A stretch of DNA of 64,000 nucleotides from a virus: the IMG/VR virus record IMGVR_UViG_3300042503_001836, positions 1-64,000 of that record; one strand, 5' to 3'. Below are positions 6,922 through 57,304 of this stretch, piece by piece. Made by a program: the position numbers and the translations under genes. The notes below the pieces were generated by a model. It saw nothing but the letters and a program-made list of their open reading frames with translations, searched no databases and was not told the DNA's origin. How positions within the stretch are numbered: position 1 is the stretch's first letter; each line of letters begins with the position of its first letter.

Positions 6922-7166
6922 AGATCAAGTTCCTTATTCCAATAATGAAACCTCATCATCAGCTTAGTAGCTTGCATCAAAAAGTATTCTCGCAATCCTT
7001 TAAATGACAGTTCTATACACTCATCAGCAAACATAATAGAACCATCGTTAAACACCAGATACTCCATAATACAACAGCCACTAGAATCGTATTTATAGAT
7101 ATCTATCATACGTTCCTTGAGTTGTTTTACCCTACCATTAACTAAATACATCACACAGTGTTTCAA
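6900..7166 (-). CDS. Hypothetical protein starting in, or just after, a solitary CRISPR repeat
   Basis: TTG start inside the repeat, or ATG 8 nt after it. Confidence 0.55.
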   Translation of the reverse strand: MKHCVMYLVNGRVKQLKERMIDIYKYDSSGCCIMEYLVFNDGSIMFADECIELSFKGLREYFLMQATKLMMRFHYWNKELDLWLKKEL

Positions 7167-7196
7167 TCCAACTCCCTATTAAGGGAGTATTTATAC
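7160..7196 (-). CRISPR. Solitary perfect CRISPR repeat (array-1 type)
   Basis: 37/37 match to the array 1 repeat; no neighbouring repeat. Confidence 0.95.
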
Positions 7197-14364: not shown

Positions 14365-16574
14365 GTTTCAATCCAACTCCCTATTAAGGGAGTATTTATA
14401 CCCTTTTTTCTGATTCTCTTGCAATATTCCACATATGTTTCAATCCAACTCCCTATTAAGGGAGTATTTATACGCTAGATGGCAGTGGTGGTCGGATCTC
14501 CAAGCTAGTGTTTCAATCCAACTCCCTATTAAGGGAGTATTTATACTTCCAAATAATGTTATCAGGGCTATTTTTAGCGATAACTATTAACGTTTCAATC
14601 CAACTCCCTATTAAGGGAGTATTTATACCTTATATAAATTAGATGGAATGTTCAAAAACAGGTTTCAATCCAACTCCCTATTAAGGGAGTATTTATACGC
14701 CCCAAGTGACTGCCTATTATCATCCCAGAAGGTTTCAATCCAACTCCCTATTAAGGGAGTATTTATACTTTAATGGATCAAGGTTTTTGCCCGGCAATGA
14801 ACATTGTTTCAATCCAACTCACTATTAAGGGAGTATTTATACTTTAACATTGTTTTTCTGTTCCTATTTGATAAACTTGTTTCAATCCAACTCCCTATTA
14901 AGGGAGTATTTATACCAAAATTTACACAATCTGAAAGAAGTAATTATGTGTTTCAATCCAACTCCCTATTAAGGGAGTATTTATACCTCTTTAGGCAAGA
15001 TCGACACTCTAGTGCCATCGGTTTCAATCCAACTCCCTATTAAGGGAGTATTTATACGTCGCCAGAACTGGTAATACACCTTTCTAGTTTCAATCCAACT
15101 CCCTTAATAGGGAGTATTTATACTAATAGATTGATCCAAGAACTTCAGGATCTAATCCTTGTTTCAATCCAACTCCCTATTAAGGGAGTATTTATACTTT
15201 GACGCTGGCAGTGATGATTTTAGTCAATCTTTAGGTTTCAATCCAACTCCCTATTAAGGGAGTATTTATACGATAATGTTTTAATGCTTTACCCTTCTTA
15301 CCATTAGTTTCAATCCAACTCCCTATTAAGGGAGTATTTATACCCACTTGCAGAAAAAAGAGAGTAGCGATCCTCAGTTTCAATCCAACTCCCTATTAAG
15401 GGAGTATTTATACCACAAGACGCATTTAATCTGATGCTTGATTTACACGTTTCAATCCAACTCCCTATTAAGGGAGTATTTATACTTCTTCTGGTAATTC
15501 TTCTGGACGGATACTCTTAGTTTCAATCCAACTCCCTATTAAGGGAGTATTTATACACAAGGTGAAAGATAACTGGACGTATTACCAACTTACGTTTCAA
15601 TCCAACTCCCTATTAAGGGAGTATTTATACGTAAAACAAATTAAACAAGTATCACCAAGCACTAAGTTTCAATCCAACTCCCTATTAAGGGAGTATTTAT
15701 ACAAAGAATACAGGAAATACACATTGACCATATATTTGTTTCAATCCAACTCCCTATTAAGGGAGTATTTATACAAATGTAGTGACTGTGGTAAATCTTT
15801 CAATGTTTAAGGTTTCAATCCAACTCCCTATTAAGGGAGTATTTATACTCAGATTGCTTAACTGGTTCAGATTGTTTAACTGGTTCAGTTTCAATCCAAC
15901 TCCCTATTAAGGGAGTATTTATACTGTCAAAATTAATTGATAAACCTTTAATATGTGGGTTTCAATCCAACTCCCTATTAAGGGAGTATTTATACTTACA
16001 TCGTATAACCCGGTGTATAAAGTAGTAGTTTCAATCCAACTCCCTATTAAGGGAGTATTTATACCATTAGTTGTTAGTTTAGGAATTGGCATCGAATCAC
16101 AGTTTCAATCCAACTCCCTATTAAGGGAGTATTTATACCTAAAGGTCAAATGGCAGTACATACTCGATAAGGTTTCAATCCAACTCCCTATTAAGGGAGT
16201 ATTTATACTCTACCCTATCCCACCAATCAGCCCCGGTAACGTTAAGGTTTCAATCCAACTCCCTATTAAGGGAGTATTTATACCGAATTAATTGGCCTAG
16301 TGAGACCGCAACCAATACGTTTCAATCCAACTCCCTATTAAGGGAGTATTTATACGTGCAACTGGAGAAATCGGCGAGCGCTCACCTGGAAGTTTCAATC
16401 CAACTCCCTATTAAGGGAGTATTTATACTTTCACTTCTTCAATTCTTAAATTAGCTGTTGTTCGTTTCAATCCAACTCCCTATTAAGGGAGTATTTATAC
16501 GGAAGGGGTGAATTAACTCAACGTCTTAACCCATCCTGTTTCAATCCAACTCCCTATTAAGGGAGTATTTATAC
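14365..16574 (-). CRISPR. CRISPR array 1: 31 repeats (37 nt), 30 spacers
   Basis: Repeat on minus strand GTATAAATACTCCCTTAATAGGGAGTTGGATTGAAAC; period ~72 nt; leader on the cas7 side. Confidence 0.98.
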
Positions 16575-16800
16575 TGCTGCACTCCAGAGTCCTTACTATA
16601 TTTAGTTTTCAAGGTTCAGTTGCGCGGATGGTATTATAATAGTCCATTTCAGAAATTGTGTCAAGGGGCGAAATAGCTGAAACCTTTGCTGTATAAGGTG
16701 CGCGGGTACTTATAATAGTAAAATGGCTGAAATTCTTATATATAAAGAATTTCAGCCATTTTATTCATTACTTATATTTTTACACCCACCCATCCGCGCA
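16575..16800 (-). promoter_or_regulatory. CRISPR leader 1
   Basis: Homologous to 22110-22336 (CCGCG.AACTGAACCTTGAAAACTAAATAT, TTGACACAATT, GCTGAAATTCTT...TTTCAGC). Confidence 0.85.
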
Positions 16801-16802
16801 AT

Positions 16803-17663
16803 TTAGGTTAATTTTGTTAGACTTACTCCGTTGGGCAAATCATTACTAAGTATCACCTGATAATCGCTAAAACTGCGAGGTACAGCAACGGTAGACTTAA
16901 TTTCCAGTTTATCAAATAACTCATGAACAGGCGCACTGCCATACTTATTATCGTGACTAAAAATATACAGACCACGACACGCCATAAGACCACGACTAGC
17001 AGAACGATCAAACTCCCAAGATTTAACAAGTGCATCCCACAATAATTCTAGGTCGCGTTCCGTTACGTGGCTGGCTAAACTAGGATTATAAAAAACGTAA
17101 GAACGATATAAACCATAGGGAATAGTTTCTTTACGACCCATAGTTTTGTTGTCTTTGTTTTCTTGGGCTTCAGTGGACGCACAGCGAGTAATGCAAACAG
17201 ATTGAGGAAATATAGGATCAATGCTTCTAGCAAAGCTAAATTGTGACGCACCCCATACCTGTCCTGCTTGGTAGTCTCCAGTAGACATAACTGCACCAAA
17301 CATTCTTACATCATAGTAATTTTGGCGCATCCAATTATTAACAACGTCAACACCAGTTTTATCTTTTTTAGACTTCTTAGTTCCAGAAGCATCATAAGCC
17401 GCTTCTAAAGTATTGTTCAGAACCGATCCTGACTTAATAAAGATTCTGAATCTTTCTGGTTTTTGCTCATCAGAGGCAACCATTTGAATGTAGTTCCTAA
17501 CTTTACGTTTTAGACAAGCATCAGTTACCAAACCTTGATTAGTTTGAGGATCAATTCGTGGTTGATTACCAGCATCAGGATCACCGTTAGGATTACCGTC
17601 AAGACAATCAAATAATAGAATAGCGTCGTGTTTTTTGGTTGGGTCTAAATAAATCTGTGTCAT
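16803..17663 (-). CDS. cas7: Type I-C Cas7 (Csd2)
   Basis: GNPNGDPDAGNQPRID, TDACLKRKVRNY, DVRMFGAVM, TMGRK..IPYGLY. Confidence 0.95.
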   Translation of the reverse strand: MTQIYLDPTKKHDAILLFDCLDGNPNGDPDAGNQPRIDPQTNQGLVTDACLKRKVRNYIQMVASDEQKPERFRIFIKSGSVLNNTLEAAYDASGTKKSKKDKTGVDVVNNWMRQNYYDVRMFGAVMSTGDYQAGQVWGASQFSFARSIDPIFPQSVCITRCASTEAQENKDNKTMGRKETIPYGLYRSYVFYNPSLASHVTERDLELLWDALVKSWEFDRSASRGLMACRGLYIFSHDNKYGSAPVHELFDKLEIKSTVAVPRSFSDYQVILSNDLPNGVSLTKLT

Positions 17664-17681
17664 GATGTTTACCTTTTGTTA

Positions 17682-19337
17682 TTAGTCGTTTTCAGTTTCA
17701 GTAGTTTCTAATTCAGCTTCAGTTCTTTTAGCATAGAACTCACTTTTCATTTGCCACCAACCTTGAAAGAATAAAGCTTGAGACTTTGTATCAAGAATAT
17801 CTGGCAGACTAGTTATATCAAAATCCTTAAATTCTTCAGTTAATTTAGGTTTGATATAACCAACATTTTCTAAGTGATAACCCATGCAGTGACTACAGAT
17901 TTTAGCAAACACTTGGGAAGGTGTAGATGATAAAATTTTCAAGTTTTTCATCACTACAGTTTTATCCTCAGAAATCTTCTGTGATTTCCAATGTACAGTG
18001 TGAAATAAGAAAGATATTCTACCCAGTTTAAAGGCAGAATCTAAGGTTAATTGTCCAGTGGGATAACTCATGTTATTGCTTGCTAAGTACAGATATAAAC
18101 CTTGTGCTTTGACATAGCTAAATTGTCTTTCTGCACAGATTCTAGAAATAATCTTTTGGGCGTAACCATCCGATAAGGCAGATCCGAGTAGTGCAAATTT
18201 GGTAATTTCTCTAGCGATACGTGACTTGTAATTGTCCTTACCATCAGCAAAAGCACATTTCACTAACAACCAAATTGGACTAGCTTTAGTAGCGCAACTC
18301 AGTTGTATTTCTACAAATCTTTTTAGGGATGATTTGACCTGACCTAAAGTGGTTTCTGTCCAACTAGATAAAGATATTCTCCCAGCGTTACCAGTTAGGC
18401 AAGCTATGAAAAATAGACTTTCTTCCAGTTCCTCAACATTCAGATTTTGAGGTTTATTTGGCGTGGAAAATATAGTTTCTAAAGATGGGTTATCCCACAC
18501 TTCGGCATTTATACCTTCACTGGTTTCCTCACCCCAATAAACAAAAACCTGATTTTCTGTCTTGAACCTATTGTTAGGTGAATCAAGTAAAAAGTTAAGT
18601 GTCTTATGTGTTCTAATTGCGCTTCTAATACTCATAGAAGCATTAGCATTACCAGCTAATCCATAAGACTCAGTAACTTCTTTATCAAAACTTACTAAAG
18701 CTGCACCTGCTGACTGGGAATTAGGAACGCCTTTAATCTTTAGTGGAACTACAGTTTTTAAAACTAATGCCTGTTCTTCACCGGATATTAAACAAAGTCC
18801 TCGTGTTCCTTCATTAAGCTTCAAAAGGTCACTATTTGCCTTCTTAACCCACCATTCCTTAATAATAGGAATACTGGTTATTTGCTCACCATCTAGCAAA
18901 AAAACAAATACTGATTTAACCCAATCTTCTTTAACTTTAGGGTTAACCTCTTTTAGCTGCTTAAATATCTTAGAACTGTCAGTTGATGTGACATATTCAT
19001 AGACTTTCCTAACAGCTTCATGTTCAGTAGCATTAATACATTGCTGTAATAACTCTAAGTACAAAGGCTGTCTTTTTCGTCCACGATCACCAGCACCAAA
19101 TAAATATTCAGCACTATCATCTATTAAAAGAGGTTTTTCACCATTCCTTAACAGATCCGGTACTAAAAGTTTCTTACTTAATGATGGTTGTCCTTTACTT
19201 TTTGGTGTTTCTAAAGACGTTATACTACCACTACTTAAATCAATAGCATAGTTAACACCTTTAGACTCGTAACCGTAGGGAGATAGTAAATTTTGACTAT
19301 CTAAAAACTTGCCTAGTTTATCTAATTCGGACAGCAT
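17682..19337 (-). CDS. cas8c: Type I-C Cas8c (Csd1)
   Basis: Lies between cas5 and cas7; CLISG, KIKGV...GAALVSF..ESYG, L.GNAGRIS, C-terminal Cas11-like F.LGR...QALF..G. Confidence 0.88.
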   Translation of the reverse strand: MLSELDKLGKFLDSQNLLSPYGYESKGVNYAIDLSSGSITSLETPKSKGQPSLSKKLLVPDLLRNGEKPLLIDDSAEYLFGAGDRGRKRQPLYLELLQQCINATEHEAVRKVYEYVTSTDSSKIFKQLKEVNPKVKEDWVKSVFVFLLDGEQITSIPIIKEWWVKKANSDLLKLNEGTRGLCLISGEEQALVLKTVVPLKIKGVPNSQSAGAALVSFDKEVTESYGLAGNANASMSIRSAIRTHKTLNFLLDSPNNRFKTENQVFVYWGEETSEGINAEVWDNPSLETIFSTPNKPQNLNVEELEESLFFIACLTGNAGRISLSSWTETTLGQVKSSLKRFVEIQLSCATKASPIWLLVKCAFADGKDNYKSRIAREITKFALLGSALSDGYAQKIISRICAERQFSYVKAQGLYLYLASNNMSYPTGQLTLDSAFKLGRISFLFHTVHWKSQKISEDKTVVMKNLKILSSTPSQVFAKICSHCMGYHLENVGYIKPKLTEEFKDFDITSLPDILDTKSQALFFQGWWQMKSEFYAKRTEAELETTETEND

Positions 19338-19963
19338 AATACACCGTCCTTTAATATAAAATTGGCAAATTCAACAACAGATTTTCCTTTGGTAATCCCA
19401 TTTTTAGACTTCCAGGAAATTTTACCTTTCTTATCTGGAATAAAATGCTCTTGTTTAGGCATCATTCCCAGATCCTTAACACCTCTCAAAGTTGCGCTAG
19501 GGTATTCTTTTTCTTGGGGTAATCCAAAGTAAGCAATATACTCTCGACAGCCAAAATAAGGCTGTTTAAAACATTTACCTTCTTTGATTCTGTCAGCAAT
19601 AATCGCGTAATACTTATCAGGATTAAGGTTGTCATCTGTTAATTCAAAGCAAAAATCAATGTGATAGGCAACGTCTTTTAACAATATCTGAGTCCGTTGT
19701 GTACGGTCTTCCTCAATTGTCTTTAACTTACCCACATTGCGGTAACTTTGCTTTGACTTGATCATGTTCCGCATGACGGACAAATGTTTGATTGGCTTTA
19801 GTACAGAAATACTATTTATGGAATATTTTATCTCAGGTTTCCAAAAAATAGATTCTAGGATGCCAACAGCCGCAGTGAACGTCATAACTGGATAGGTATG
19901 CGGTTCACTCTTGTACTCAGGTCTGGTAAATAGGGCAAAGTCACCCCAAACTTTTAATTGCAC
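19322..19963 (-). CDS. cas5: Type I-C Cas5 (Cas5d, crRNA-processing)
   Basis: VWGDFALFTRPE.K.E..TYPV.T..AA.GILESIFWKP, RTQR, QPYFGCREY. Confidence 0.95.
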   Translation of the reverse strand: MQLKVWGDFALFTRPEYKSEPHTYPVMTFTAAVGILESIFWKPEIKYSINSISVLKPIKHLSVMRNMIKSKQSYRNVGKLKTIEEDRTQRTQILLKDVAYHIDFCFELTDDNLNPDKYYAIIADRIKEGKCFKQPYFGCREYIAYFGLPQEKEYPSATLRGVKDLGMMPKQEHFIPDKKGKISWKSKNGITKGKSVVEFANFILKDGVLCCPN

Positions 19964-20042
19964 ACAATAAACCTTTGCTCTCTCTAATTTTGTAAAATAA
20001 TGTTAGTCTTATTTTACGTTGTCTCCTTATCATAATGTACTA

Positions 20043-22097
20043 ATGAGATATTTGTCAAGAGTCAATAAAAACAGTCTAAAACAAGAATTAAAACAGCACT
20101 TAACTAACGTTGCTACAACGTCTAAAAGCATTGTACCATCTGAGTTTCAAGCAGTAGCCTATTATGCCGGGCTATGGCATGATCTAGGTAAGTATAGAGA
20201 AGAATGGCAATATTATTTATTACAACGGGTCGCAGGTGACAAAGTAAAAACTATATCACACGCTGCTCATGGTGCAGTATTAGCTTTGCAGTCACACACA
20301 AGCAAGAAAGATCCGCCAGCTATGGCTTATATAATTGCCGGACATCATGCAGGCTTATATGCTAAAGACAAGTTAAAAGGAACTGAGTACAAACAAAAAG
20401 CAGAAGGTCTAAACGAGTGTTTATGCAACGCTAAAGATGAAATACCTGGTTTTATGCCGGACAAATTACCAGATATTGATTTACCTAAACTATCTAGGGA
20501 GTTTGCTATCAGGATGTTATTTTCTGTGGTAGTTGATTGTGATCGCACCGATGCCCAAATATTTGAATCTGGTAAACCACCTGCACAAATTAAAGACATA
20601 ATTCCTAACTTCCCTACATTCTCTCATACTTCAGATATTGGATTAATTAGGTCTAAGTTTGCAAATTATTGTATAAACGCAGCTAAATACAATAAAGGAT
20701 TTTTTAGATTATCCGGTGCTTGTGGAATAGGTAAGACCATTGCAAGTGCTAAGTTTGCTTATTTGCACAGTGATATTCATAATATGTCAGGAATAGTTTA
20801 TGTTAGTCCGCTAAAAAGCATTATTGAACAAACAGCTAATGTATACCGGGATCTGTTTGGTGATAATGCAGTATTAGAACATCATTCAGGATATGACCCT
20901 AGTGAAGCTAACCATGAAGAGTATAAGCTAAACACAGAAAGATGGGATAAACCAGTAATTGTTACTAGCGGTGTACAGTTTTATGAAAGTTTATTTGCCA
21001 ATAGTCCCTCTAAGTGCCGTAAACTGCAAAGCTTAATCAACAAAGTGATCTTAATAGATGAATCTCAAACTATACCCACTCATTTAGTCCGTCCAACCTT
21101 AGATGTACTAAAAAGTTTAGTTAATGATTGGGGCTGTACTGTAGTTTTAATGAGTGCCACACAGCCAGCATTTAACAACCTAAAAAATGATGATATCAAA
21201 AACATTACAAATATAATCCCTGAACAAGATTGTATAGATTTTTTTGATAAACTTAACAGGGTTAACTATAAATTTAATCCGGCTTTGTGGGAAATAGAAA
21301 ACCTAAAAGATGACGTGATTAATTCAGGAATAAAGCAAGGTTTAATAATAGTTAACACGACTAAACTAGCAAGAGACATCTATCAGGAATTATCTGAATA
21401 TTTACCCTGTTATCATCTCAGTTCTAGAATGTGTCCCGCACATAGACAAGCAACATTAAACACAGTAAAGACGTTATTAGCTGACAATAAACCATGTTTT
21501 TTAGTTAGTACACAAGTAATAGAAGCAGGAGTAGACATAGACTTTCCTCAAGTATGGAGACAGTTAGCACCATTAGATGCAATTATCCAAGCTGCGGGTA
21601 GATGCAACCGTGAGGGTAAACAAGATAAAGGCAATGTAATAATTTTTAAGATGAAAGGTTTTGTTTCATCTGACTATAATAATCGTCAAAAAATCACAGA
21701 ACAGTTATTACTACAAACGGATCTAAATATTAATATGCTTAACACAATTAATAGATATTTCCGTATTCTGTACAATGAAAACCATGATGGCGGATTAGAA
21801 ATACAAAAGCTTAGGGAAAACTATAATTATCCCGAAGTAGCAGAAAAATATAAAGTTTTGGATGACACACAGATATCTGTAGTAGTTGAATATGGGGATA
21901 ATCAACAATTATTAAATGAGTTAAAAACTAAGGAATTTTTAACTAACAATGACTGGAGAAAATTACAGAAATTTACAGTCAATTTACCGCAAAGTATGGT
22001 TGATTTTGAGGAAGTCAATGGAGTAAAATATTGGATAGGGGAGTATAATAATAATGTTGGTTGTCTACCCTTCGAGTATAAAGTTTTAATAGCATAA
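20043..22097 (+). CDS. cas3: Cas3 HD-nuclease/helicase, compact and divergently transcribed
   Basis: HL, WHDLGK, GHH, VVDCD, G.GKT, IDESQ, MSATQP, STQVIEAGVDIDF, QAAGRCNR. Confidence 0.95.
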   Translation: MRYLSRVNKNSLKQELKQHLTNVATTSKSIVPSEFQAVAYYAGLWHDLGKYREEWQYYLLQRVAGDKVKTISHAAHGAVLALQSHTSKKDPPAMAYIIAGHHAGLYAKDKLKGTEYKQKAEGLNECLCNAKDEIPGFMPDKLPDIDLPKLSREFAIRMLFSVVVDCDRTDAQIFESGKPPAQIKDIIPNFPTFSHTSDIGLIRSKFANYCINAAKYNKGFFRLSGACGIGKTIASAKFAYLHSDIHNMSGIVYVSPLKSIIEQTANVYRDLFGDNAVLEHHSGYDPSEANHEEYKLNTERWDKPVIVTSGVQFYESLFANSPSKCRKLQSLINKVILIDESQTIPTHLVRPTLDVLKSLVNDWGCTVVLMSATQPAFNNLKNDDIKNITNIIPEQDCIDFFDKLNRVNYKFNPALWEIENLKDDVINSGIKQGLIIVNTTKLARDIYQELSEYLPCYHLSSRMCPAHRQATLNTVKTLLADNKPCFLVSTQVIEAGVDIDFPQVWRQLAPLDAIIQAAGRCNREGKQDKGNVIIFKMKGFVSSDYNNRQKITEQLLLQTDLNINMLNTINRYFRILYNENHDGGLEIQKLRENYNYPEVAEKYKVLDDTQISVVVEYGDNQQLLNELKTKEFLTNNDWRKLQKFTVNLPQSMVDFEEVNGVKYWIGEYNNNVGCLPFEYKVLIA

Positions 22098-22109
22098 ATA
22101 CTTAGTATC

Positions 22110-22336
22110 AAGCGCGTGTGGTTGGGTGTGAAAATCTAGATAATGAATAAAATAGCTGAAATTCTTGATAGGTAAGAGTTTCAGCTATTTTGTTTTTGTA
22201 AGTACCCGCGCCTTAGTAATGGTAAGGGTTTCGGCTGTTTTTGCTGTTGACACAATTCCTGGAATGGGGTATGATTATCTCATCCGCGAAACTGAACCTT
22301 GAAAACTAAATATAATCAGGCTTTTAGAAAGCAACA
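22110..22336 (+). promoter_or_regulatory. CRISPR leader 2
   Basis: Homologous to leader 1; TTGACA...TATGAT promoter. Confidence 0.85.
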
Positions 22337-23888
22337 GTATAAATACTCCCTTGATAGGGAGTTGGATTGAAACAACCCTATTTGGATAATAGGGTTAATC
22401 ACCTTGGTATAAATACTCCCTTGATAGGGAGTTGGATTGAAACATTGACCTTGCCGATCTGGTTCATACCTACCGCAATGTATAAATACTCCCTTGATAG
22501 GGAGTTGGATTGAAACAAATCATCTATTGTGCGATCGCCTATAGATGGAGATAGTATAAATACTCCCTTGATAGGGAGTTGGATTGAAACATTGTTCCAA
22601 CTGCAAGTAACTTTATCAATAATCCGTATAAATACTCCCTTGATAGGGAGTTGGATTGAAACGTAGCGTTCATATCTAGCAGCCCCTTATCTTGGTATAA
22701 ATACTCCCTTGATAGGGAGTTGGATTGAAACTCAGCAGTTAGATATTTTTCACCTTTCAAGTTAGGTATAAATACTCCCTTGATAGGGAGTTGGATTGAA
22801 ACCACACCCATAATTAACTGAGCCGCTTCAGAAGCTTGGGTATAAATACTCCCTTGATAGGGAGTTGGATTGAAACGCCAATCCAATACGTTACAGACTG
22901 ATAGCTGACCCCGTATAAATACTCCCTTGATAGGGAGTTGGATTGAAACGCTTTGATAGGCAATCCCCTTTAAGTCCTTACCAGGTATAAATACTCCCTT
23001 GATAGGGAGTTGGATTGAAACTTCTATTCCTTCGAGGCTGCACACTCTAACATATTCGGTATAAATACTCCCTTGATAGGGAGTTGGATTGAAACTTTAA
23101 TGTTGCCATTAATCAGCCAGGCGCGAATGTATAAAGTATAAATACTCCCTTGATAGGGAGTTGGATTGAAACATCTGGTTTAGCACTACTAGCTATGGTG
23201 AAAAATTTGGTATAAATACTCCCTTGATAGGGAGTTGGATTGAAACAACCTAAGCGTAAAGCTAAAACGGACAACCTTTAAGTATAAATACTCCCTTGAT
23301 AGGGAGTTGGATTGAAACCACTTTTGGTTAACGGGTAGTCGGTAAAAAGGTCATGGGTATAAATACTCCCTTGATAGGGAGTTGGATTGAAACTTATTAT
23401 TGGAAAACTTTTTAACCATAGCCAGTATAAATACTCCCTTGATAGGGAGTTGGATTGAAACTTAACGCTTTACCCTTCTTACCGTTAGACACCCTGTATA
23501 AATACTCCCTTGATAGGGAGTTGGATTGAAACAATCTGTTTTAGTCCATCAGATAATAGTTGGGAATTTTGACGTATAAATACTCCCTTGATAGGGAGTT
23601 GGATTGAAACAATCTGTTTTAGTCCATCAGATAATAGTTGGGAATTTTGACGTATAAATACTCCCTTGATAGGGAGTTGGATTGAAACAATGGTGCGATC
23701 GCTCAAAAGTATAAATACTCCCTTGATAGGGAGTTGGATTGAAACGTTCACTTCTTCAAAATAATCTAATTCATTCTCAGTATAAATACTCCCTTGATAG
23801 GGAGTTGGATTGAAACTTTTGTCTGCTATCGTTCTAGCAGTGATAACCCAGGTATAAATACTCCCTTAATTGGGAGTTGGATTGATAC
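22337..23888 (+). CRISPR. CRISPR array 2: 22 repeats (37 nt), 21 spacers
   Basis: Repeat GTATAAATACTCCCTTGATAGGGAGTTGGATTGAAAC, 1 nt different from array 1; degenerate terminal repeat at 23852-23888. Confidence 0.98.
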
Positions 23889-26799: not shown

Positions 26800-26800
26800 G

Positions 26801-26902
26801 ATAAATACTTCTTGAAAAGGAGTTGGATTGAAACAAAATAGCGAGATAAATACTCCCTTAACCGGAAGTTGGATTGAAACATAAAACAAAACGGATTGAA
26901 AC
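26801..26902 (+). CRISPR. Collapsed intercistronic repeat cluster: two degenerate repeats plus a handle-only remnant
   Basis: Repeats at 26801-26834 and 26846-26880, GGATTGAAAC at 26893-26902; gaps of 11-12 nt. Confidence 0.85.
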
Positions 26903-34823: not shown

Positions 34824-36272
34824 CTAGACTAGAAGCTCAACAGTCACATGACCGTGATCACATACAACACGTTTTACAAGATCCTGAAATAAAATCCGTT
34901 GTTCTTCTACCGTTGCCTGCCTCCAAAGCTGCGGCATAGCTGCATAATGTCTCATTAGTTCATATTTACTATCAAGACCTGTTGATATATTCTCCCGTTT
35001 TAAAGACATCAACAGGTTTTCTAATTTAGTCTGTTTCATCTGAATTGCTTCTTGCAAATCAGGGTCATTAAGTCCTATCAGTTTTTTTATTTGTTGCCTA
35101 ATCTCATCTATTTCCGGCGTTGTTTCCTTTATTTCCTCATGCTGTATAACTTGATTGGCTATTTCATCAGCACGTTGACATAGCGCATTGATAACATAAG
35201 TAATACAATCCTCTATAACTAAGCTATAACTAGCTTTTCTATCACAAGTCGCTAGTTTACCTGGTTCTGGATAAGCATTTTTGCAAAGTAAATAGCTATA
35301 CTTGGTAGTTTCACCTGCCTTAGTTGTGAACTTACTGCTTTGAACACGCATAAAACCACCACAACCAGCACAATATATAAGCCCTATTAACGGGTTTATG
35401 ACGATAGACCTTTTGCGCTTAGTTAGATGTGACTTGTCAAGAATATTACAAATTTCTATATATTTCTCATCTGATAAAATCCGTTCAAACTTATCAGGAA
35501 TAAGCACTCGTTTATTATTATCCTGGTTAAAATAGACTAGGAAACCTCGGAGCATGGGATGTAATAACCACTTCCTAAACCCGCCATGACTATGGGGATG
35601 ATCGGGTATTAATTTTGATTTACTAAATTCAAAACCGTACAGCATATTAAACTTTTTAACAGTACCACTCAATGACCTAGACTGACAGAAATAATCAATC
35701 ATATCTATGGCTACTTGATAATAACTTCTGTTAGATTCTTTATATAAATCATGGTTTATAATCAAAGTGTCATCTACTTTTTTATAACCAAACAAAGCCT
35801 GAAAGACTTTTTCCTGCGCTCTAAAATATTTGACACCTTCCCTAGAATTGTGGATAATCAAATCACGTTCTCTTTCAGCTAAGGCTGATTTTAGTCGTAA
35901 ATTAAACAGGTCATCTGGTTTATCTAATCCAAGTTGGCCACCATCAAGGAAAACAAGAATAACTCCAGTATTTTTTAGTTCCTCCAGTTCTTGCTCAAAA
36001 TGTAGCGATGATCGCGTAAACCTTGAAAAGTAGGGGATAACTAATTTTTTAATTTTCCCAGCCTTGATTAAAGTCAAAACCTTCCGATAATTAACGCGGC
36101 TATCTGAAGCACCACTATCAATATCCCAATAGATTTGGTCATCAGTTAACCCATAATTCCGTAAAGCCTCAATATATCTTTCCAGTCCGTGACCTTCTAA
36201 TTGTTGCCGTTGAGTAGAGACACGGCAGTACCCGACACTATACTTTAAATCCTTATCCTGCATAACTTTCAC
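34824..36272 (-). CDS. Large serine recombinase (integrase-like)
   Basis: YCRVST, DSGA...R, SRFTRS, recombinase domain, CAGC...C...C zinc ribbon, coiled coil. Confidence 0.92.
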   Translation of the reverse strand: MKVMQDKDLKYSVGYCRVSTQRQQLEGHGLERYIEALRNYGLTDDQIYWDIDSGASDSRVNYRKVLTLIKAGKIKKLVIPYFSRFTRSSLHFEQELEELKNTGVILVFLDGGQLGLDKPDDLFNLRLKSALAERERDLIIHNSREGVKYFRAQEKVFQALFGYKKVDDTLIINHDLYKESNRSYYQVAIDMIDYFCQSRSLSGTVKKFNMLYGFEFSKSKLIPDHPHSHGGFRKWLLHPMLRGFLVYFNQDNNKRVLIPDKFERILSDEKYIEICNILDKSHLTKRKRSIVINPLIGLIYCAGCGGFMRVQSSKFTTKAGETTKYSYLLCKNAYPEPGKLATCDRKASYSLVIEDCITYVINALCQRADEIANQVIQHEEIKETTPEIDEIRQQIKKLIGLNDPDLQEAIQMKQTKLENLLMSLKRENISTGLDSKYELMRHYAAMPQLWRQATVEEQRILFQDLVKRVVCDHGHVTVELLV

Positions 36273-37768: not shown

Positions 37769-40700
37769 ATGCCAGTAGTTAAATTTTCTCTGAATCAGTA
37801 TCGTGCTTACTTTGACTTAGTTAAGCCTCAATATATTAGCTGGGATTTCTATAAAAAATATATAGACAGAAAACCGCCATTTGGCGAGTTAGGTGCAATT
37901 ATATATTTGAGAACTTACAGCCGATTTATTAATGAACTAAAACGCCGTGAACTATGGCAAGAAACCGTATTAAGAAACATTGAGTACAGCCTAAGCTTAG
38001 ACACTGTAACCCCATTAGAGGACAAATTTACAGAAGCTAAAGCGTTATTTGATATGATGTTTAACTTGCAGGGTTTTCCTGCGGGTAGAAGTCTATGGAC
38101 AGCAGGATCACCACAAACTGAAAAAGATTCATCCAGTAATTGGAACTGTACATTTAAGACTGTAGACAGTTTAAGCGCGTTTAGTGAGATTTTTTATTGG
38201 TTGTTAATTGGTGCTGGTACTGGTTTTAGTGTTGAGCAAAAATATATTTCTCAACTACCAGAATTTAATGCAAAAGTCCATGTGATTCATGAAGACTACA
38301 ACTATCAAAAGAGACTTGATGGTACTTTTGTTAATATCACAGATTCAGAAAGTAGTCCGCAGTTCCTAACAACTTACACCGATTTTGTAGAGACTTCAGA
38401 AATAATTAGACCTGACAATGAGTTTGTTAGACATCTAGATGATAACCACAAGATAGTTAGATTACAAATTGGCGATAGTAAAGAAGATTGGTGTAATGCT
38501 TTGAGAATATTTTTAAAAGCATTGACTAATAAAAATGTAGAGAAAATCTACATTAATTATGATCCTATACGTCCGCAGGGAACGCCTATCAAAACTTTTG
38601 GCGGACGTGCTAGTGGGCATAGAACATTATTAGAAATGTTTGATAATATTTCATATGTTCTTCAAAGATGTTCAGGTGTTTTAGCCTCTATTGACTGCTT
38701 AGATATCATAAATGCTTTAGGTTATAACGTAATGGCAGGTGGTGTACGTCGCTGCTTACCTAAAGGTACATTAGTTCATCTTCAAAATGGACTAGTACCA
38801 ATTGAAAAAGTCAAAGTGGGTGACATAGTAGCAACATCAAAAGGCTATCATCAGGTGACTGACTTTGTTTATCAAGGTATTCAACCAATATCCCAAATTA
38901 CAACGCAAGCGGGCATTTTTGAATGTACAGATAAACACAAAATAGCGATCATTTCTGACACTCAAGGTAACTATATCTGGAAGCAAGCTAAGGATATACA
39001 AATTGGTGACAGAATGGTATTTGTTAAAAATACTATTCCAGGTACAGAAACTAAACTTCCAGAATTTGACTACATTTATCCTGAACATAGTACAACCTGC
39101 AAAGCAATAACCATACCGGATATGAGTGATGATATCGCCTATTTGCTAGGTTTCTTACACGGAAATGGTTATGTTAGACTAACATCTTCAGAAGGAAATA
39201 TCAGCTTTGCAATAGCTCCTGATTTACCACAAATAGTAGAAAAAATTGACAGTATTATTAAGCAGTTCGGTGTTCATACAAAATTACGTGAACCCCAAGA
39301 AAATGATAACTGCTATAAGCTAGTAATTAAGTCAAAACAATTAGCTACTTTTTTAAGTCAGTTTAAGTTATCTAATCAAACTTTAGTTATTCCCGATCTA
39401 ATTCTTCAGGGTCTTGATTCTTATAGAGCAGCATACACGGCAGGCGTATTTGATGCCGACGGTTCAGTTAAAAACAGACCTATTACTGTTGCCACAAGTG
39501 TTTATCCTGAATTTTTGAAACAGTTGCAAGTAGTTTTATCAAGTTTAGGCATCTTAACTACTTTAAATAAAAAAAGAGATGCTAAAGGCAATTGGAAAGC
39601 ACTTCACATACTTAATCTGAAAGGGGAAATGTTTATTGATAGATTTGAAAGACAAGTAGCATCATTTTCACTTAAGTTTAGAGACAATAGAAAATCTGCA
39701 AGATCACAAAATGATTTTGGTTTTCCGTCCAGGATGGTCACTTCTGATAAAGTTAAGTTTGGCAGTCAATGGGATGCTAAATGTAAACAGATGACTGTAG
39801 CTAGACTTGAGAAAATCACAGGCATTGAGGTTTATAGAGTCCCTGTAGAAGTGTTAAGTATCAATCACGCGGTAAGAAATGATTACACTTACGATATCAG
39901 TGTGGATTCAGTAAATGAGTTTATTGCTGATACTGGTTATTTAGTACATAACACTGCTGAACTGGCTCTAGGCGATAGTTCAGATGAATCCTTTAAGACC
40001 GCAAAAGTAGGACTGTTTAGTGATCCAGCTAAAGCAAGAGTTAAGGATCTAAGAACAATGTCTAATAACTCTACAGGCGAATATGATCATCCTGGAGTAG
40101 ATGCAATTAATAAGACATTTGAATGTTTAGAAACTCAAGGTGACCCAGGTTTTTGGATTATTGGAAATAGTCAGAAATTAGCAACATCACCCGTTAAAGG
40201 CACGAATCCATGTGCTGAAGCGGCTTTAGACGACAAACAATCATGCAACTTAACGACTAAGAACGTTAGGGCTTGCATATACTTTGATAAAAAGTCTGGC
40301 AAGTGGGAGTATAACTGGGAACTAGGGAAAAAAGTCATTGAACTAATTACCCGACTAGGAACTCGGATCACACTAGCTAAACAATGGCATCCAGAATGGG
40401 ACAGAACACAGAAGAGAGATCGTTTGCTTGGAGTTTCTATGACAGGCGTAATGGATGCCTTTGATCTACTTGGTTGGGATTATGAGCAGCAAAAGTATTT
40501 CTTCCAATGGTGTAAGCAAACAGCGATAAAAGCCTCAGACGATTACCACGACTATTTAGGAATTAACAGAAGTGCTAGAGTCTGTTTAATGAAACCAGAA
40601 GGAACAATCAGCCTACTACCAACCGTTTCTAGTGGTATCCATCGCGCTTATGCTCCTTACTATTTACGTCGCGTTAGATTTAGTAAATCAGATCCTTTAG

Positions 40701-41209
40701 CACAAGTATTATTAGACTTGGGTCTTAAACCTGTACCGCAAAATGGGCAAGGCGACGATTTATTCAGTGATATTTGTAATACTTGGGTCTTTACATTTCC
40801 TATCAAGACTAATGCTAAAACTCGCGCAATTGATGAGCCAGTTACAGAACAATTAGAACGCTATAGACTAGCACAAACTAACTATGCTGATAGGGGCCAT
40901 AACATTTCAATAACTGTAACTGTTGCGCCAGATGAATATAAAACAGCCGCAAATTGGGTAAATGATAATTGGGATGACATTATTGGAATTGCTTTTTTAC
41001 CTAGATTTGATCCGGTTGAAGGTGGTAAAGCAGCTTATCCTTTGATGCCCCTAGAACCGTGTGACAAGGAAACTTATGAAGCTTTGAAAGCACAATTACC
41101 TGTACTTTCTCAAACAGATATTATCAATAAATTATCTGAGATTGAGAAAGGATTTGAGGAACAGGAATTAGATCAAGGATGTGTTACAGGTGCGTGTCCT
41201 ATTCGCTAG
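37769..41209 (+). CDS. nrdJ: Class II (B12-dependent) ribonucleotide reductase with intein
   Basis: RTYSR, PAGR.LW, WNC, GTGF, FGGRASG, AGGVRR|TAE, GTNPCAE, CNLT, KPEGT.S, C-terminal C..G.CPIR. Confidence 0.92.
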   Translation: MPVVKFSLNQYRAYFDLVKPQYISWDFYKKYIDRKPPFGELGAIIYLRTYSRFINELKRRELWQETVLRNIEYSLSLDTVTPLEDKFTEAKALFDMMFNLQGFPAGRSLWTAGSPQTEKDSSSNWNCTFKTVDSLSAFSEIFYWLLIGAGTGFSVEQKYISQLPEFNAKVHVIHEDYNYQKRLDGTFVNITDSESSPQFLTTYTDFVETSEIIRPDNEFVRHLDDNHKIVRLQIGDSKEDWCNALRIFLKALTNKNVEKIYINYDPIRPQGTPIKTFGGRASGHRTLLEMFDNISYVLQRCSGVLASIDCLDIINALGYNVMAGGVRRCLPKGTLVHLQNGLVPIEKVKVGDIVATSKGYHQVTDFVYQGIQPISQITTQAGIFECTDKHKIAIISDTQGNYIWKQAKDIQIGDRMVFVKNTIPGTETKLPEFDYIYPEHSTTCKAITIPDMSDDIAYLLGFLHGNGYVRLTSSEGNISFAIAPDLPQIVEKIDSIIKQFGVHTKLREPQENDNCYKLVIKSKQLATFLSQFKLSNQTLVIPDLILQGLDSYRAAYTAGVFDADGSVKNRPITVATSVYPEFLKQLQVVLSSLGILTTLNKKRDAKGNWKALHILNLKGEMFIDRFERQVASFSLKFRDNRKSARSQNDFGFPSRMVTSDKVKFGSQWDAKCKQMTVARLEKITGIEVYRVPVEVLSINHAVRNDYTYDISVDSVNEFIADTGYLVHNTAELALGDSSDESFKTAKVGLFSDPAKARVKDLRTMSNNSTGEYDHPGVDAINKTFECLETQGDPGFWIIGNSQKLATSPVKGTNPCAEAALDDKQSCNLTTKNVRACIYFDKKSGKWEYNWELGKKVIELITRLGTRITLAKQWHPEWDRTQKRDRLLGVSMTGVMDAFDLLGWDYEQQKYFFQWCKQTAIKASDDYHDYLGINRSARVCLMKPEGTISLLPTVSSGIHRAYAPYYLRRVRFSKSDPLAQVLLDLGLKPVPQNGQGDDLFSDICNTWVFTFPIKTNAKTRAIDEPVTEQLERYRLAQTNYADRGHNISITVTVAPDEYKTAANWVNDNWDDIIGIAFLPRFDPVEGGKAAYPLMPLEPCDKETYEALKAQLPVLSQTDIINKLSEIEKGFEEQELDQGCVTGACPIR
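38753..39952 (+). mobile_element. Intein with LAGLIDADG homing endonuclease (400 aa)
   Basis: Starts CLPKGT, ends LVHN, +1 residue Thr; YLLGFLHGNG and AGVFDADG motifs. Confidence 0.92.
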
Positions 41210-43304: not shown

Positions 43305-44492
43305 ATGAAAGCCAGATATCAGTATCGTTTTTACCCCACAATTCAACAACAACAGAGTCTAGCTCAGTTGTTTGGTTGCGTTCGGGTGGTATGGAACGAT
43401 GCTTTGGCTATTTGTAAACAAGCAGAAAAATTGCCAAGCAATAATGATTTGCAAAAACTAGTTATTACTCAAGCAAAGAAAACTGCTGAACGTAATTGGT
43501 TGTCCGAGGTATCTAATATTCCTTTGCAGCAATCAGTTGCAGACTTAGGGGTTGCCTACAAAAACTTTTTTGACTCCATTAAAGGTAAGCGAAAAGGTAA
43601 AAAATTTGGGAGTCCCAAGTTTAAAAAGAAAACAAATCAGCAATCGGCACGGTTTAGAATTGGTGGTTTTTCAATTAAAGGAAATGAAGTTTATCTTGCT
43701 AAAATTGGAAACGTAAAACCAATCTGGTCTAGGGAATTACCAGCTTCGCCTAGTTCTGTAACAGTAATCAAAGATTGTGCTAATCGTTATTTTCTTAGTT
43801 TTGTAGTAGAAGTTGAACCTGTTAATATTGATGCCAAAAACCAAAGTATCGGTATTGATTTAGGAATTAAAACTTTTGCTGTCATGAGTAATGGGGAAAA
43901 AGCTAAAAGTCCTGATTACGCACAATTAGATAGGAAAATTCGTAAACTTCAAAAGAAGTTAGCACGTCAATCGAAAGACTCAAAGCGCAGAAATAAAACC
44001 CGAATTAAAATTGCAAAACTCCATAATCAAATTACTGATATCCGTAAAGACTTCTTGCACAAATTATCTACCAAAATTATTAACGAAAACCAAGTTATTG
44101 TTTTAGAAGACTTGAATGTGTCGGGCATGGTCAAAAACCGCAAACTTGCCAGAGTAATTAGTCTACAAGGATGGAGGCAATTTAGAACTTTATGCGAGGG
44201 TAAATCGCAAAAGTTTAATAGGGATTTTCGTGTTATTAGCAGATGGGAAGCAACAAGCCAAATTTGCTCTGAATGTGGATACAAATGGGGTAAACTTGAT
44301 TTGAAAATTCGGTCGGTTAAGTGCATGAGTTGTGGAACTGAACACGACCGAGACGAAAATGCTGCCAAAAATATAAATAAAGTCGGGATAGGGCATTGCC
44401 ACGACTCTAAACGGACGCAGAGACAGAATAAGACTACTTCGGTAGCATCAGTCGGTGAAGCGTCAAGAATCACCGCGCCTTTAGGTCGGTGA
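43305..44492 (+). CDS. tnpB: TnpB RNA-guided nuclease
   Basis: YRFYPT, GIDLG, VLEDL, CSECG...CMSCG, DRDENAA. Confidence 0.95.
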   Translation: MKARYQYRFYPTIQQQQSLAQLFGCVRVVWNDALAICKQAEKLPSNNDLQKLVITQAKKTAERNWLSEVSNIPLQQSVADLGVAYKNFFDSIKGKRKGKKFGSPKFKKKTNQQSARFRIGGFSIKGNEVYLAKIGNVKPIWSRELPASPSSVTVIKDCANRYFLSFVVEVEPVNIDAKNQSIGIDLGIKTFAVMSNGEKAKSPDYAQLDRKIRKLQKKLARQSKDSKRRNKTRIKIAKLHNQITDIRKDFLHKLSTKIINENQVIVLEDLNVSGMVKNRKLARVISLQGWRQFRTLCEGKSQKFNRDFRVISRWEATSQICSECGYKWGKLDLKIRSVKCMSCGTEHDRDENAAKNINKVGIGHCHDSKRTQRQNKTTSVASVGEASRITAPLGR

Positions 44493-47258: not shown

Positions 47259-48362
47259 ATGAAAGTAATATGCTCCGTTGTTGATCTGCGTGATCAACTA
47301 GAAAAACTGGTATTAGCTTGTAATACTAAGTATTCCCCTACTCTTAGCTATGTTTTAGTAGAATCAAAAGATTCTATTATAAGAATGACCACTACTGACT
47401 TAAGCATTAGCTTATCAATAACTGTAGTAGGTCAAGTAGTAAAGTCTGGTAACGGTTTACTACCATGTAAGCAGTTATTAAGCTTACTTAAAGTTTTAGC
47501 TGCTGATGAAGTAGTTTTGACTATAAATGATGAAATCTGTTTAGTACAAACTAATACAGGTAATTACCGATTACCAAGCGAACCGTTTACAAATTTTCCC
47601 AACTTACCCACAATACAAGATGGGGACACTTATCAGCTAGAAGCAAAGAAACTTACTGAAGGTATAAAAGCAGTTTTATTTAGTGCTAGTACAGATGAAA
47701 CTAAAGGTGTTTTATGTGGAGTGCATCTGACCATGCTACAAGGACATAATTTAGAATTTGCAACTACTAATGCTCATATACTTTCATTAATAGAATTAAC
47801 TAGTGAATATACAAACTCTGATACAGAGTTTACTATTCCTAACCAAGCTTGTTTGTTGCTGCAAAAACTCCTAGAAAAAGTTGATGATGTCAAGATCACT
47901 GTTAAAGATTCGGACATTGCCTTTGAGTTTGATAATTACAAACTTACTAGCCGATTGTTAGAGGGACAATACCCAAGATATTATCATTTGTTCCCTCGAC
48001 AGTTTGATAAAAAACTAACTGTTGATCGGGTAGCTTTACTTGATGCTGTTGAGAAAATTCAAGTAATATCATCATTAAAAAATAATGGTGTTATTTTTAA
48101 TCTAAGTCTAGAAAATCAAGAAATAAATCTAACATCTCAAGTAACAGAGGTGGGTATCACAAAGATATCCTTACCAGCACAAATATCCGGTGATAGTTTG
48201 AAAACTGCGTTTTATTGTCCATACTTAGTTAGCGTATTAAAAAATCTTTCATCTACTGAAGTGCAGATTAAGCTTAATGCTAAATTAACCCCTGTAGTGT
48301 TTTCCCCATTAAGCACTCAGAAAATCAAATATTTAGTAATGCCCTTTGAAATCAGAAAATAA
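47259..48362 (+). CDS. dnaN: DNA sliding clamp (beta subunit)
   Basis: TDL, FPNLP, FSASTDETK.VL.GV, ATTN.H.L, SRLLEGQYP.Y, YLVMP. Confidence 0.93.
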   Translation: MKVICSVVDLRDQLEKLVLACNTKYSPTLSYVLVESKDSIIRMTTTDLSISLSITVVGQVVKSGNGLLPCKQLLSLLKVLAADEVVLTINDEICLVQTNTGNYRLPSEPFTNFPNLPTIQDGDTYQLEAKKLTEGIKAVLFSASTDETKGVLCGVHLTMLQGHNLEFATTNAHILSLIELTSEYTNSDTEFTIPNQACLLLQKLLEKVDDVKITVKDSDIAFEFDNYKLTSRLLEGQYPRYYHLFPRQFDKKLTVDRVALLDAVEKIQVISSLKNNGVIFNLSLENQEINLTSQVTEVGITKISLPAQISGDSLKTAFYCPYLVSVLKNLSSTEVQIKLNAKLTPVVFSPLSTQKIKYLVMPFEIRK

Positions 48363-48365
48363 AAA

Positions 48366-49772
48366 ATGAAAATCATAACAACAATTAAAGAAATAACTGA
48401 AGCTTTACCTGGACTATTAGCTGTAATTCCTAAGCGTCCTACCCATGCAGTGTTAGCTAATATTTACTGCCAAACCATAAAAGAAAACGGTAAAGAAGGT
48501 ATTAGATTAAGGGCAACTAATTTACAGTCATACCTCACAGTTTTTATTGCCTGTAATGTAGTGGAATCTGGCGAGTGCTGTATACCTGCTAAATTGTTTT
48601 CTGATATCATCACCAAAACTAAATCTAGCGGTGTATTAGAGTTAATCCTATCTGGTAATGGTGAAGAATTAACAATAGGAACTAACAATCTGAAACAAGC
48701 TATTAAAGCTTATGACAGTCCTGAGTTCATAGAGTTTCCAAAACCTGAAAAAACAGATAAACAAGTGACTGTTGATGGTATTCAGTTTTTCAATAAAGCT
48801 AAAACCTTGTGTGAACACATCAGCAAAAATAGTTACACAGAAAACCTTAATAATGTACATTTAGCTTATGGTAAACTCGCAGCCTGTGATGGTCATAAAT
48901 TAGCCTATGCAGATTTGAAAGTAAGCAAAGATGCACCTAGTATTTTTATACCGCCAGATTTAATTCCAGTTTTAAATAAATTGAATCTGGTCAAAAAATT
49001 AAAGGGCTTAGAGAACACTGATATTACTTTTAGTGTACAGGAATATGAATTAACAAACGGTGATCTACTGTTCTTTAACTTTGATAATTGGGAACTAATA
49101 CAAGGCACTCGCAGTTATAAACCACTACCTGACACAAATTTAGAAGATGGTACTGTTTACACTGATGTAGAGTTTGATAGGAAGCACTTATTATCAAGAA
49201 TAAAAGCGGCAATCATTTGTAATGAAAAGAAGATTACAAGGTTATGGTTGCATTTACAAGCAGGTAATCTTCACTTTATTACAGATAATAGTTCCGACTA
49301 TTTAGAAGCTTATACTTCTGGTGTGATTGCTTCCTGTTTGATAGAGGCTGAAAAGCTTGTACAGATAGTGGATAGTTTAAAAACTAAAACAATTAAAATC
49401 AAACTACCCCATTCTTGGGGATTGTTAGGCGTGGAAGTAGATGATTTTAACATTGGTTTATTATTAATGAAATCTAAGGATTATGATCAAATAACTTTAG
49501 ATGAGTTTGTAGAAACTATAGGTGTAGAAAGTCCAGTAGAGATTACTTGGAAAGAATTACCACAGTTATCTACAGAAGTTAATCATGAAACTGAGGAAGC
49601 ATTACCAGAAATAAAATCAACGGCTGTTGCTGTGTTAGAACCCGTTACCACAGAACCAACTATTGATAGCCAAGTGAAGGATGCTACTACACATCTACAA
49701 AACCTTTTGGCTACTGTCACAGATGTACAACTTAAAGAAGCAATAGTTAAAGAAGTTTTAGCTTTAGTTTAG
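48366..49772 (+). CDS. Divergent second beta-clamp-like protein with acidic tail
   Basis: PKRPTHAVLANI, LRATNL, G..CIPAKLFSDII, AACDGHKLA. Confidence 0.7.
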   Translation: MKIITTIKEITEALPGLLAVIPKRPTHAVLANIYCQTIKENGKEGIRLRATNLQSYLTVFIACNVVESGECCIPAKLFSDIITKTKSSGVLELILSGNGEELTIGTNNLKQAIKAYDSPEFIEFPKPEKTDKQVTVDGIQFFNKAKTLCEHISKNSYTENLNNVHLAYGKLAACDGHKLAYADLKVSKDAPSIFIPPDLIPVLNKLNLVKKLKGLENTDITFSVQEYELTNGDLLFFNFDNWELIQGTRSYKPLPDTNLEDGTVYTDVEFDRKHLLSRIKAAIICNEKKITRLWLHLQAGNLHFITDNSSDYLEAYTSGVIASCLIEAEKLVQIVDSLKTKTIKIKLPHSWGLLGVEVDDFNIGLLLMKSKDYDQITLDEFVETIGVESPVEITWKELPQLSTEVNHETEEALPEIKSTAVAVLEPVTTEPTIDSQVKDATTHLQNLLATVTDVQLKEAIVKEVLALV

Positions 49773-57267: not shown

Positions 57268-57304
57268 GTTTCAATCCAACTCCCTATCAAGGGAGTATTT
57301 ATAC
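57268..57304 (-). CRISPR. Solitary perfect CRISPR repeat (array-2 type)
   Basis: 37/37 match to the array 2 repeat; lies in the 3' region after ORF 57354-57623, before a terminator. Confidence 0.95.

Follow-up and report, generated by a model that had tools for sequence, protein, structure and literature searches.

The DNA analysed here, called the window throughout, comprises the first 64 kb (64,000 nt) of a 118,553-bp virus record (IMGVR_UViG_3300042503_001836; linear, 36% G+C) and carries a variant CRISPR-Cas system of type I-C (short palindromic repeats, clustered and regularly interspaced, with CRISPR-associated proteins), with cas3, cas5c, cas8c and cas7c flanked by two inverted repeat arrays. 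The arrays hold 51 spacers in all, 50 of them distinct, a total in agreement with an earlier reading of the same DNA (the original prediction). We regard it as probable, at about 70%, that this phage module, which is devoid of adaptation genes, has its arrays fed by the type I-D Cas4-Cas1-Cas2 proteins of the host, and that it is aimed at rival mobile elements.

Two overlapping spacers, one from each array, are central to this reading. Focal spacer 1 (35 nt, positions 15272-15306, minus strand) is the 18th from the leader in array 1, and focal spacer 2 (34 nt, 23462-23495, plus strand) the 16th from the leader in array 2. Compared on the plus strand, the last 26 nt of the former pair with the first 26 nt of the latter with 24/26 nucleotides identical, the two mismatches, T/C and A/G, falling on aligned positions 5 and 23, respectively; coordinates and sequence were as originally given. 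When all pairs of the 51 spacers were compared on both strands (ungapped, +1/-2), the focal pair scored 20, surpassed only by a 41-nt spacer present in array 2 as an exact duplicate (23533-23573 and 23611-23651), and since the top score over 60 shuffled spacer sets was 14, the overlap was considered real. A 13-nt match between spacers 16429-16463 and 23746-23779 lay inside the shuffle range and was discarded. As the arrays are mutually inverted, the two focal CRISPR RNAs (crRNAs) would pair with opposite target strands.

Each focal spacer exposes the 5' flank of the other. With the repeat taken to end in ATTGAAAC, the flank of 15272-15306 would be GTC, as deduced from focal spacer 2, and that of 23462-23495 GTT, as deduced from focal spacer 1; the same trinucleotides had been named in the original prediction. 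The merged 43 nt of the pair (RVSNGKKGKALKHY) contain one open frame among six, and in this frame both differences are synonymous third-position transitions, as claimed. A plus-strand frame has identical third positions, yet starts with a stop. By chance, both differences would land on third positions in about 1 of 9 cases. The single open frame and the two synonymous transitions suggest a coding target. We infer that one and the same coding segment, the putative target, was taken up twice, once from each strand, in two synonymous variants.

The target of the focal pair was sought directly with the degenerate, back-translated merged peptide, covering all synonymous versions. Neither viral nor metagenome contigs gave a match, and with 2 mismatches allowed none of 389 Nostocaceae genomes did; a tblastn search against the targeted contig returned chance-level matches only. 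The proposal of a coding target met in two variants accordingly rests on its frame argument and on the targets of other spacers, in which variation is real: the homologues of the target of 23533-23573 differ among each other, the -3 base included (one has ATT, three have GTT). The focal target itself was not found in the viral, metagenomic and Nostocaceae sequences searched.

For a broader view of the protospacer-adjacent motif (PAM), array 1 was searched against 401 genomes sampled from the order of genome G001 and each array against the 389 Nostocaceae genomes; local blastn-short was run on matched loci and whole contigs, and candidates were kept at ≤20% mismatches. This yielded candidate protospacers for 11 of the 50 distinct spacers in Nostocaceae genomes. 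Their best-match 5' flanks were GTT for 15486-15519 (5/34 mismatches), 22732-22765 (3/34) and 22877-22912 (5/36), and GTC for 22803-22839 (1/37; a homologue with 7 mismatches likewise has GTC), 23022-23058 (5/37) and 23689-23708 (1/20), the last being less certain since it is short and holds the cyanobacterial palindrome GCGATCGC. ATT was found for 23533-23573 (7/41, with GTT in three homologues of 8 mismatches), 14474-14509 (6/36) and the doubtful 22374-22406 (4/33, per-genome E ~1e-3), ATC or ATT for 15631-15665 (0/35 in two genomes, with ATT in 11 further homologues), and GAA for 14916-14949 (4/34).

The flanks were inspected for TTC, the PAM of type I-C, and for GTN enrichment, the two features that the original prediction had named as decisive. 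TTC occurred in 0/11 protospacer flanks and 0/2 flanks derived from the focal pair (0/13 together), while GTY was present in 6/11, RTY in 10/11 and ATY in 4/11; against a background of 2.85% GTY among trinucleotides in the target loci, 6/11 corresponds to a binomial p = 2.2e-7. The 3' flanks showed no pattern. The motif seen originally at two sites is thus extended by six of 11 independent candidates. All eight clear GTN flanks of the phage's own spacers, six from protospacers and two from the pair, are GTY, and a perfect match of a relative's spacer has GTG, so that the motif may be either GTY or GTN. Insertion of spacers in flipped orientation was also considered and ruled unlikely, GTN being found on the other side in 1 of 7 non-GTN protospacers (15631-15665, GTC).

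The module itself is arranged around two divergent operons. cas3 (20019-22097, plus strand; 692 aa, HD nuclease and helicase) scored above the cut-offs of TIGR01587 and TIGR01596. On the minus strand, cas5c (19322-19963; 213 aa, the presumed pre-crRNA endonuclease) reached 130.9 bits with TIGR01876 (cut-off 85), the divergent cas8c (csd1; 17682-19337; 551 aa) 206.6 bits with PF09709, far above the cut-off of that model, and 173.7 bits with TIGR01863, below its cut-off of 218.65, and cas7c (csd2; 16803-17663; 286 aa) 280.7 bits with TIGR02589 (cut-off 182.25), in addition to a match to PF05107. cas3 and cas5c-cas8c-cas7c are flanked by the two arrays, each of which lies downstream of its operon and is read outward. 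Array 1 (14365-16574, minus strand, leader-proximal end at 16574) contains 31 repeats of 37 nt and 30 spacers, and array 2 (22337-23888, plus strand) 22 repeats and 21 spacers, its last repeat being degenerate with 3 mismatches. The repeats of the two arrays are mutual reverse complements but for one loop base. Array orientation follows from the repeat end TGGATTGAAAC, the degenerate final repeat of array 2, and the alignment of both leaders with host leaders in this direction. In the predicted structure of the repeat, a stem of 7 bp precedes the 11-nt tail TGGATTGAAAC, an I-C-type handle.

Adaptation genes were sought across the 118.5-kb record with Pfam models of Cas1, Cas2 and Cas4, which gave 0 matches and score in control genomes, and by tblastn with Cas1, Cas2 and Cas4 of a host type I-D system, again with 0 matches in the phage; in a control by tblastn, all three genes were found directly after cas7 in 3/3 canonical Porphyromonas type I-C loci. 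The cas genes that are present (Cas5c, Cas7c/Csd2 and Cas3 among their products) fit I-C models, and tblastn of the phage with Cas10d and Cas6 of the host type I-D locus L078 gave 0 matches. The spacers have no self-targets in the 118.5-kb record, the top match being 16 nt.

The leaders connect the arrays to type I-D. The leader of array 1 (16575-16802, minus strand) contains a promoter-like site, TTGACA-17 nt-TATTAT, and blocks conserved with host type I-D leaders, and that of array 2 (22098-22336, plus strand) is its paralogue, with 79% identity over 211 nt. Both stretches, the one separating cas7 from array 1 and the one separating cas3 from array 2, match segments of ~205 nt in many Nostocaceae genomes at 75-82% identity, often several per genome, and in 22/22 host loci examined the segment adjoins an array of a common Nostocales repeat (...CCCTATTAGGGATTGAAAC). 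Leader 1 is 82% identical over 206 nt to positions 15099-15303 of L078, downstream of cas2 in a complete type I-D locus (genome G003), the operon before it comprising I-D cas3', cas10d, csc2, csc1, cas6, cas4, cas1d and cas2, all over the NCBIfam cut-offs; in L079 and L080, type I-D genes lie upstream of the leader as in L078. In a multiple alignment with shared blocks, the phage leaders are nearer to I-D leaders than to those of chromosomal I-C-variant arrays. Because the arrays carry leaders of the type I-D kind, new spacers are most likely inserted by host I-D Cas4-Cas1-Cas2. The same agent had been put forward in the original prediction; the missing cas1, cas2 and cas4 and the homology of the leaders speak for it, the act of acquisition by host I-D proteins in trans being deduced from the sequence.

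According to a study of Synechocystis, type I-D Cas4-Cas1-Cas2 enriches GTN, and GTN licenses I-D interference (PMC5896167). On this basis, the following course of events can be proposed. During infection, host I-D Cas4-Cas1-Cas2 would pick protospacers with 5'-GTN and insert the spacers into the phage arrays, a selection that would explain why the focal pair has GTC and GTT flanks and other spacers have GTY. Cas5c would then cut the 37-nt repeat to give the I-C-type 11-nt handle, and the phage Cascade with its divergent Cas8c would have to accept GTN, not TTC, for the spacers to serve. The targets are a 17-kb tRNA-Gly element with a replication-type protein, a plasmid gene family, and sibling phages.

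These targets emerge from the following matches. The region 51.8-66.1 kb of contig G455:C102 is hit by five or six phage spacers and five spacers of relatives. It belongs to an element of 17.1 kb, bounded by a perfect 104-bp direct repeat with tRNA-Gly(TCC) at ~49.8 and 66.9 kb, which encodes a tyrosine integrase adjoining the tRNA, a Cro/C1-type HTH protein, a HerA-like ATPase, and a protein of 1467 aa that has a ResIII domain and, at E 3.8e-20 but below cut-off, a CyRepA1-like plasmid-replication domain. The element has no virion PHROG and is unrelated to the phage; it gave no convincing match to defence models, the PADLOC matches (E >0.003) having been set aside. A homologue with 73% nucleotide identity is found in another genome. 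The element may be a parasite of the phage or a defence island. Spacer 15631-15665 targets a response-regulator gene found in 13 loci and annotated on the Anabaena cylindrica plasmid pANACY.02. In direct searches, array 1 had one match among plasmids and array 2 none, and neither array matched the phage collection. From the matches to the tRNA-Gly element, the plasmid gene and the phage (see below), the targets are rival mobile elements and sibling phages.

The closest relatives of Cas7c in species genomes are encoded in Nostocales loci (63-70% identity). In these I-C-variant loci (L002-L006, L015 and L016), an array of 37-nt repeats ending in GGATTGAAAC starts ~230 nt after cas7, and adaptation genes were found in 0/7 by tblastn with host Cas1, Cas2 and Cas4; Cas1 genes are present elsewhere in those genomes. 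One of their spacers matches plasmid pANA02 of Anabaena sp. 90 with flank GTC (2/36 mismatches), two match one small contig with flanks GTC (5/34) and GTG (6/33), and two match the phage itself with flanks ATT (5/34) and ACT (8/42), amounting to GTN at 3/5 protospacers of these I-C-variant arrays. The arrays of L003 and L002 had no match in phages, and that of L002 none in plasmids. Since the Nostocales loci are without adaptation genes, have I-D-related leaders and show GTN at 3/5 protospacers, the coupling of I-C to I-D seems to be a property of the whole Nostocales I-C-variant clade, beyond the phage.

Relatives of the phage arrays proper are metagenomic. The phage-type repeat pattern had 0 matches in 185,579 species genomes and was found in one related viral contig and 21 metagenome stretches, several of which are arrays. 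These related arrays contain 52 distinct spacers, of which one is identical to a phage spacer and two more are truncated copies; all three come from the trailer end of array 2 and are shared with the metagenomic relative L165. For spacers of the relatives, candidates outside arrays were found in the tRNA-Gly element with flanks GTC (0/40 mismatches), GTT (2/41), GCC (1/37), CTC (4/35) and ATA (5/35), and in the phage itself with GTG (0/42; spacer L161 3631-3672, target 1639-1680 on the plus strand, within ORF 870-2066, which has no PHROG match) and TGG (7/36, a weak match); GTN is thus present in 3/7, or in 3/4 of those with ≤2 mismatches. As the relative's spacer matches phage positions 1639-1680 at 42/42, members of this phage lineage seem to be targets of one another. 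Among contigs from other samples, those matching the initial repeats of array 1 or array 2 go on to diverge from the leader-proximal spacers of the phage, in keeping with a lineage that acquires spacers at the leader end.

A changed PAM would have to be read by Cas8c. The phage protein is ~47% identical to Nostocales Cas8c and ~20% to canonical Cas8c, has its best PDB match in Desulfovibrio vulgaris Cas8c (E 1.6e-16), and has no relatives in the viral contig collection. In the type I-C structure, the TTC PAM is touched by two Cas8c residues only, N72 and Q212, and the TTC preference is proposed to be set mainly at acquisition (bioRxiv 10.1101/2022.06.15.496202); in view of this proposal, it is plausible that a Cascade follows another adaptation module. 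The loop around the PAM residues is LWDN-like in canonical proteins and LIDD in the phage and Nostocales clade. To judge from the flanks, phage Cas8c may read GTN.

Several observations weigh against the proposed coupling. At the positions of N72 and Q212 of D. vulgaris Cas8c, the aligned phage protein likewise has N and Q, so that no residue-level change in PAM contacts is visible, and the switch of PAM suggested for this Cas8c in the original prediction was not borne out by the alignment. Five of the 11 candidate protospacers are non-GTY (ATT, ATT, ATC/ATT, ATT and GAA), among them the sole perfect match of the phage's own spacers (15631-15665, 35/35), flanked by ATC/ATT; most candidates carry 3-8 mismatches, and their flanks may therefore have diverged since acquisition. 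For 39 of the 50 distinct spacers there was no candidate target in the genomes searched, and these searches scored 2 candidates per genome. With a CheckV completeness of 93%, 7% of the phage genome may be missing, which bears on the count of adaptation genes. Finally, the same leader family is found in L081, where I-D effector genes are missing and all that lies upstream is a remnant of cas2, and the spacer writer could therefore be another adaptation module of that leader family.

Such a writer, namely a host module tied to type III or an orphan cas1-cas2 that shares the leaders and prefers GTN by chance, would also be in keeping with the occurrence of the leader family several times per genome. 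In 3/4 of the leader-bearing 20-kb regions (L078-L081), however, full or most type I-D genes lie directly upstream of the leader, and GTN is the very PAM demonstrated for Cas4-dependent acquisition by type I-D, which makes this alternative unlikely. That the phage acquires nothing, having captured its arrays ready-made from a host, with GTN flanks recording the history of the donor array, is suggested by the layout of cas5c-cas8c-cas7c and array that Nostocales chromosomes and plasmids share with it, including the lack of adaptation genes and the related leaders. We nevertheless consider this highly improbable, as, among the collections searched, the phage-type repeat was found only in the metagenomic and viral sequences mentioned, related arrays have only trailer-end spacers in common with the phage and differ in 51/52, and contigs from other samples diverge beside the first repeats. 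No better odds are given to the notion that the crRNAs are used by the host type I-D effector instead of the phage I-C Cascade, in which case no PAM change of Cas8c would be needed. GTN is the type I-D PAM and the phage repeat is, in its central part, similar to the stem of the I-D repeat, but the 3' part of the repeat, an I-C-type 11-nt tail after the 7-bp stem, is unlike the I-D repeat fold, and the phage cas3, cas5c, cas8c and cas7c are intact. Contigs from two RNA-library runs of one study moreover span cas7, cas8c and cas5c, with DNA carry-over possible; parts of cas3 are not covered by RNA-library contigs in those runs, which weighs neither way.

A further alternative concerns the origin of the focal pair, which could stem from primed acquisition, in which a mismatched older spacer prompted uptake from the opposite strand, a few bases off, in a variant target. 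Opposite-strand overlaps also link spacers 16429-16463 and 22444-22479 to spacers in related arrays of L156 and L158, respectively, which brings such overlaps in the phage lineage to three cases among ~103 spacers; given this recurrence, hot spots or primed uptake are possible besides two independent encounters. The focal spacers differ at 2/26 positions, and priming in type I systems needs mismatches of this type. On the other hand, priming would require cross-talk of the I-C Cascade-Cas3 with I-D Cas1-Cas2-Cas4, some overlaps are expected by chance in a small target with GTN about every 20 nt, and the focal spacers are in separate arrays and both old, as their ranks from the leader indicate. 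We thus see priming as a minority explanation, of perhaps one chance in a few, and retain acquisition by host I-D proteins as the reading for the arrays as a whole. Its most elaborate form, in which the phage lineage would have split its immunity over two subtypes and two genomes, with I-C for killing, host I-D for writing through a borrowed I-D leader, and Cas8c retuned from TTC to GTN, mainly against a family of self-replicating tRNA-Gly islands and also against sibling phages, is put forward tentatively, at somewhat less than even odds.

Compared with known systems, the phage locus combines features of two subtypes. Like canonical type I-C systems (D. vulgaris, Bacillus halodurans), it has cas3, cas5c and cas7c, next to a divergent candidate cas8c, no cas6, and a stem-loop repeat followed by an 11-nt tail ending in ATTGAAAC. 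Unlike them, it is without cas4-cas1-cas2 next to cas7, its Cas8c is distant, and its repeat of 37 nt contrasts with the shorter GC-rich core in canonical Porphyromonas type I-C loci. With cyanobacterial type I-D (Synechocystis 6803; L078), it has in common the leader family and the 5'-GTN flank, but not cas10d, csc1, csc2 and cas6, and repeat and fold differ. The Nostocales I-C-variant loci agree with the phage in gene order, absence of adaptation genes, related leaders and GTN flanks, and differ in having one array instead of two and in protein sequence, at the identities given above for Cas7 and Cas8c. In this combination, the phage system would join an effector of type I-C to adaptation of type I-D.

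Among the CRISPR systems without Cas1, Cas2 and Cas4 that Al-Shayeb et al. (2020) describe in huge phages is a variant of type I-C, and a reliance on proteins of the host has been suggested for them (PMC7162821). The arrays described there are compact, with a median of six repeats, whereas the present phage has 31 and 22, a leader of another subtype from the host, and a measurable PAM. Type I-C figures in a 2025 review of type I systems in cyanobacteria, which in the text consulted gives no PAM or link to a leader (PMC11903412). Cyanophage CL131 was considered as a type I-C carrier and rejected, the system reported for it being V-U2 (PMC6293099). In the literature covered, which is incomplete, no report was found of an I-C effector with I-D leader and GTN PAM, nor of one in a cyanophage.

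Some further features of the arrays and the record are given for completeness. Solitary or paired copies of the CRISPR repeat, without a leader and distant from the arrays, are located at 195-231, 276-312, 7160-7196, 26800-26880, 56655-56691 and 57268-57304; the last recurs unchanged (37/37) at positions 12-48 of the related viral contig L151, where a homologous tail-fibre region lies downstream of it. A role as regulatory sites or as sites of processing by Cas5c is conceivable for these copies, as is an origin as scars of recombination. In contigs from other samples, a repeat of array 1 is joined to one of array 2 on opposite strands, at 16313/22555 and 16537/22477, and in L161 (2136-4920) the two arrays are only 33 nt apart; either the inverted arrays have undergone inversion or rearrangement, or the assembly went wrong at the repeats. 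PHROG matches in the record include tail fibre proteins, ribonucleotide reductase, DNA methyltransferases, two sliding-clamp genes, a serine integrase and a transposase. Positions 37769-41209, 34824-36272, 43305-44492 and 47259-49772 of the window hold the ribonucleotide reductase gene, with an inserted endonuclease-like segment, a large serine integrase, a transposase and two adjoining sliding-clamp genes.

If the proposed coupling is true, the interference and adaptation halves of CRISPR-Cas can recombine across subtypes in nature, and a type I-C Cascade working with I-D-chosen spacers would require changed PAM reading. This bears on the question of what sets the strict TTC preference of type I-C, acquisition or Cascade, and the phage would provide, for use in genome editing, a naturally occurring type I-C Cascade whose PAM is different. 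It would also show how phages without acquisition genes maintain large, changing arrays. The Vibrio phage ICP1 reportedly employs a type I-F CRISPR-Cas system, with its own adaptation genes, against the PLE island. The present case resembles it as a phage-borne CRISPR-Cas system with several spacers against a host-borne mobile element, here with ~11 protospacers of the lineage in one integrated 17.1-kb element, although the likeness does not imply harm of the element to the phage. The targets point to a three-way conflict between phage, integrative replicon and host in bloom-forming cyanobacteria, which, if true, would be a cyanobacterial counterpart of ICP1 versus PLE.

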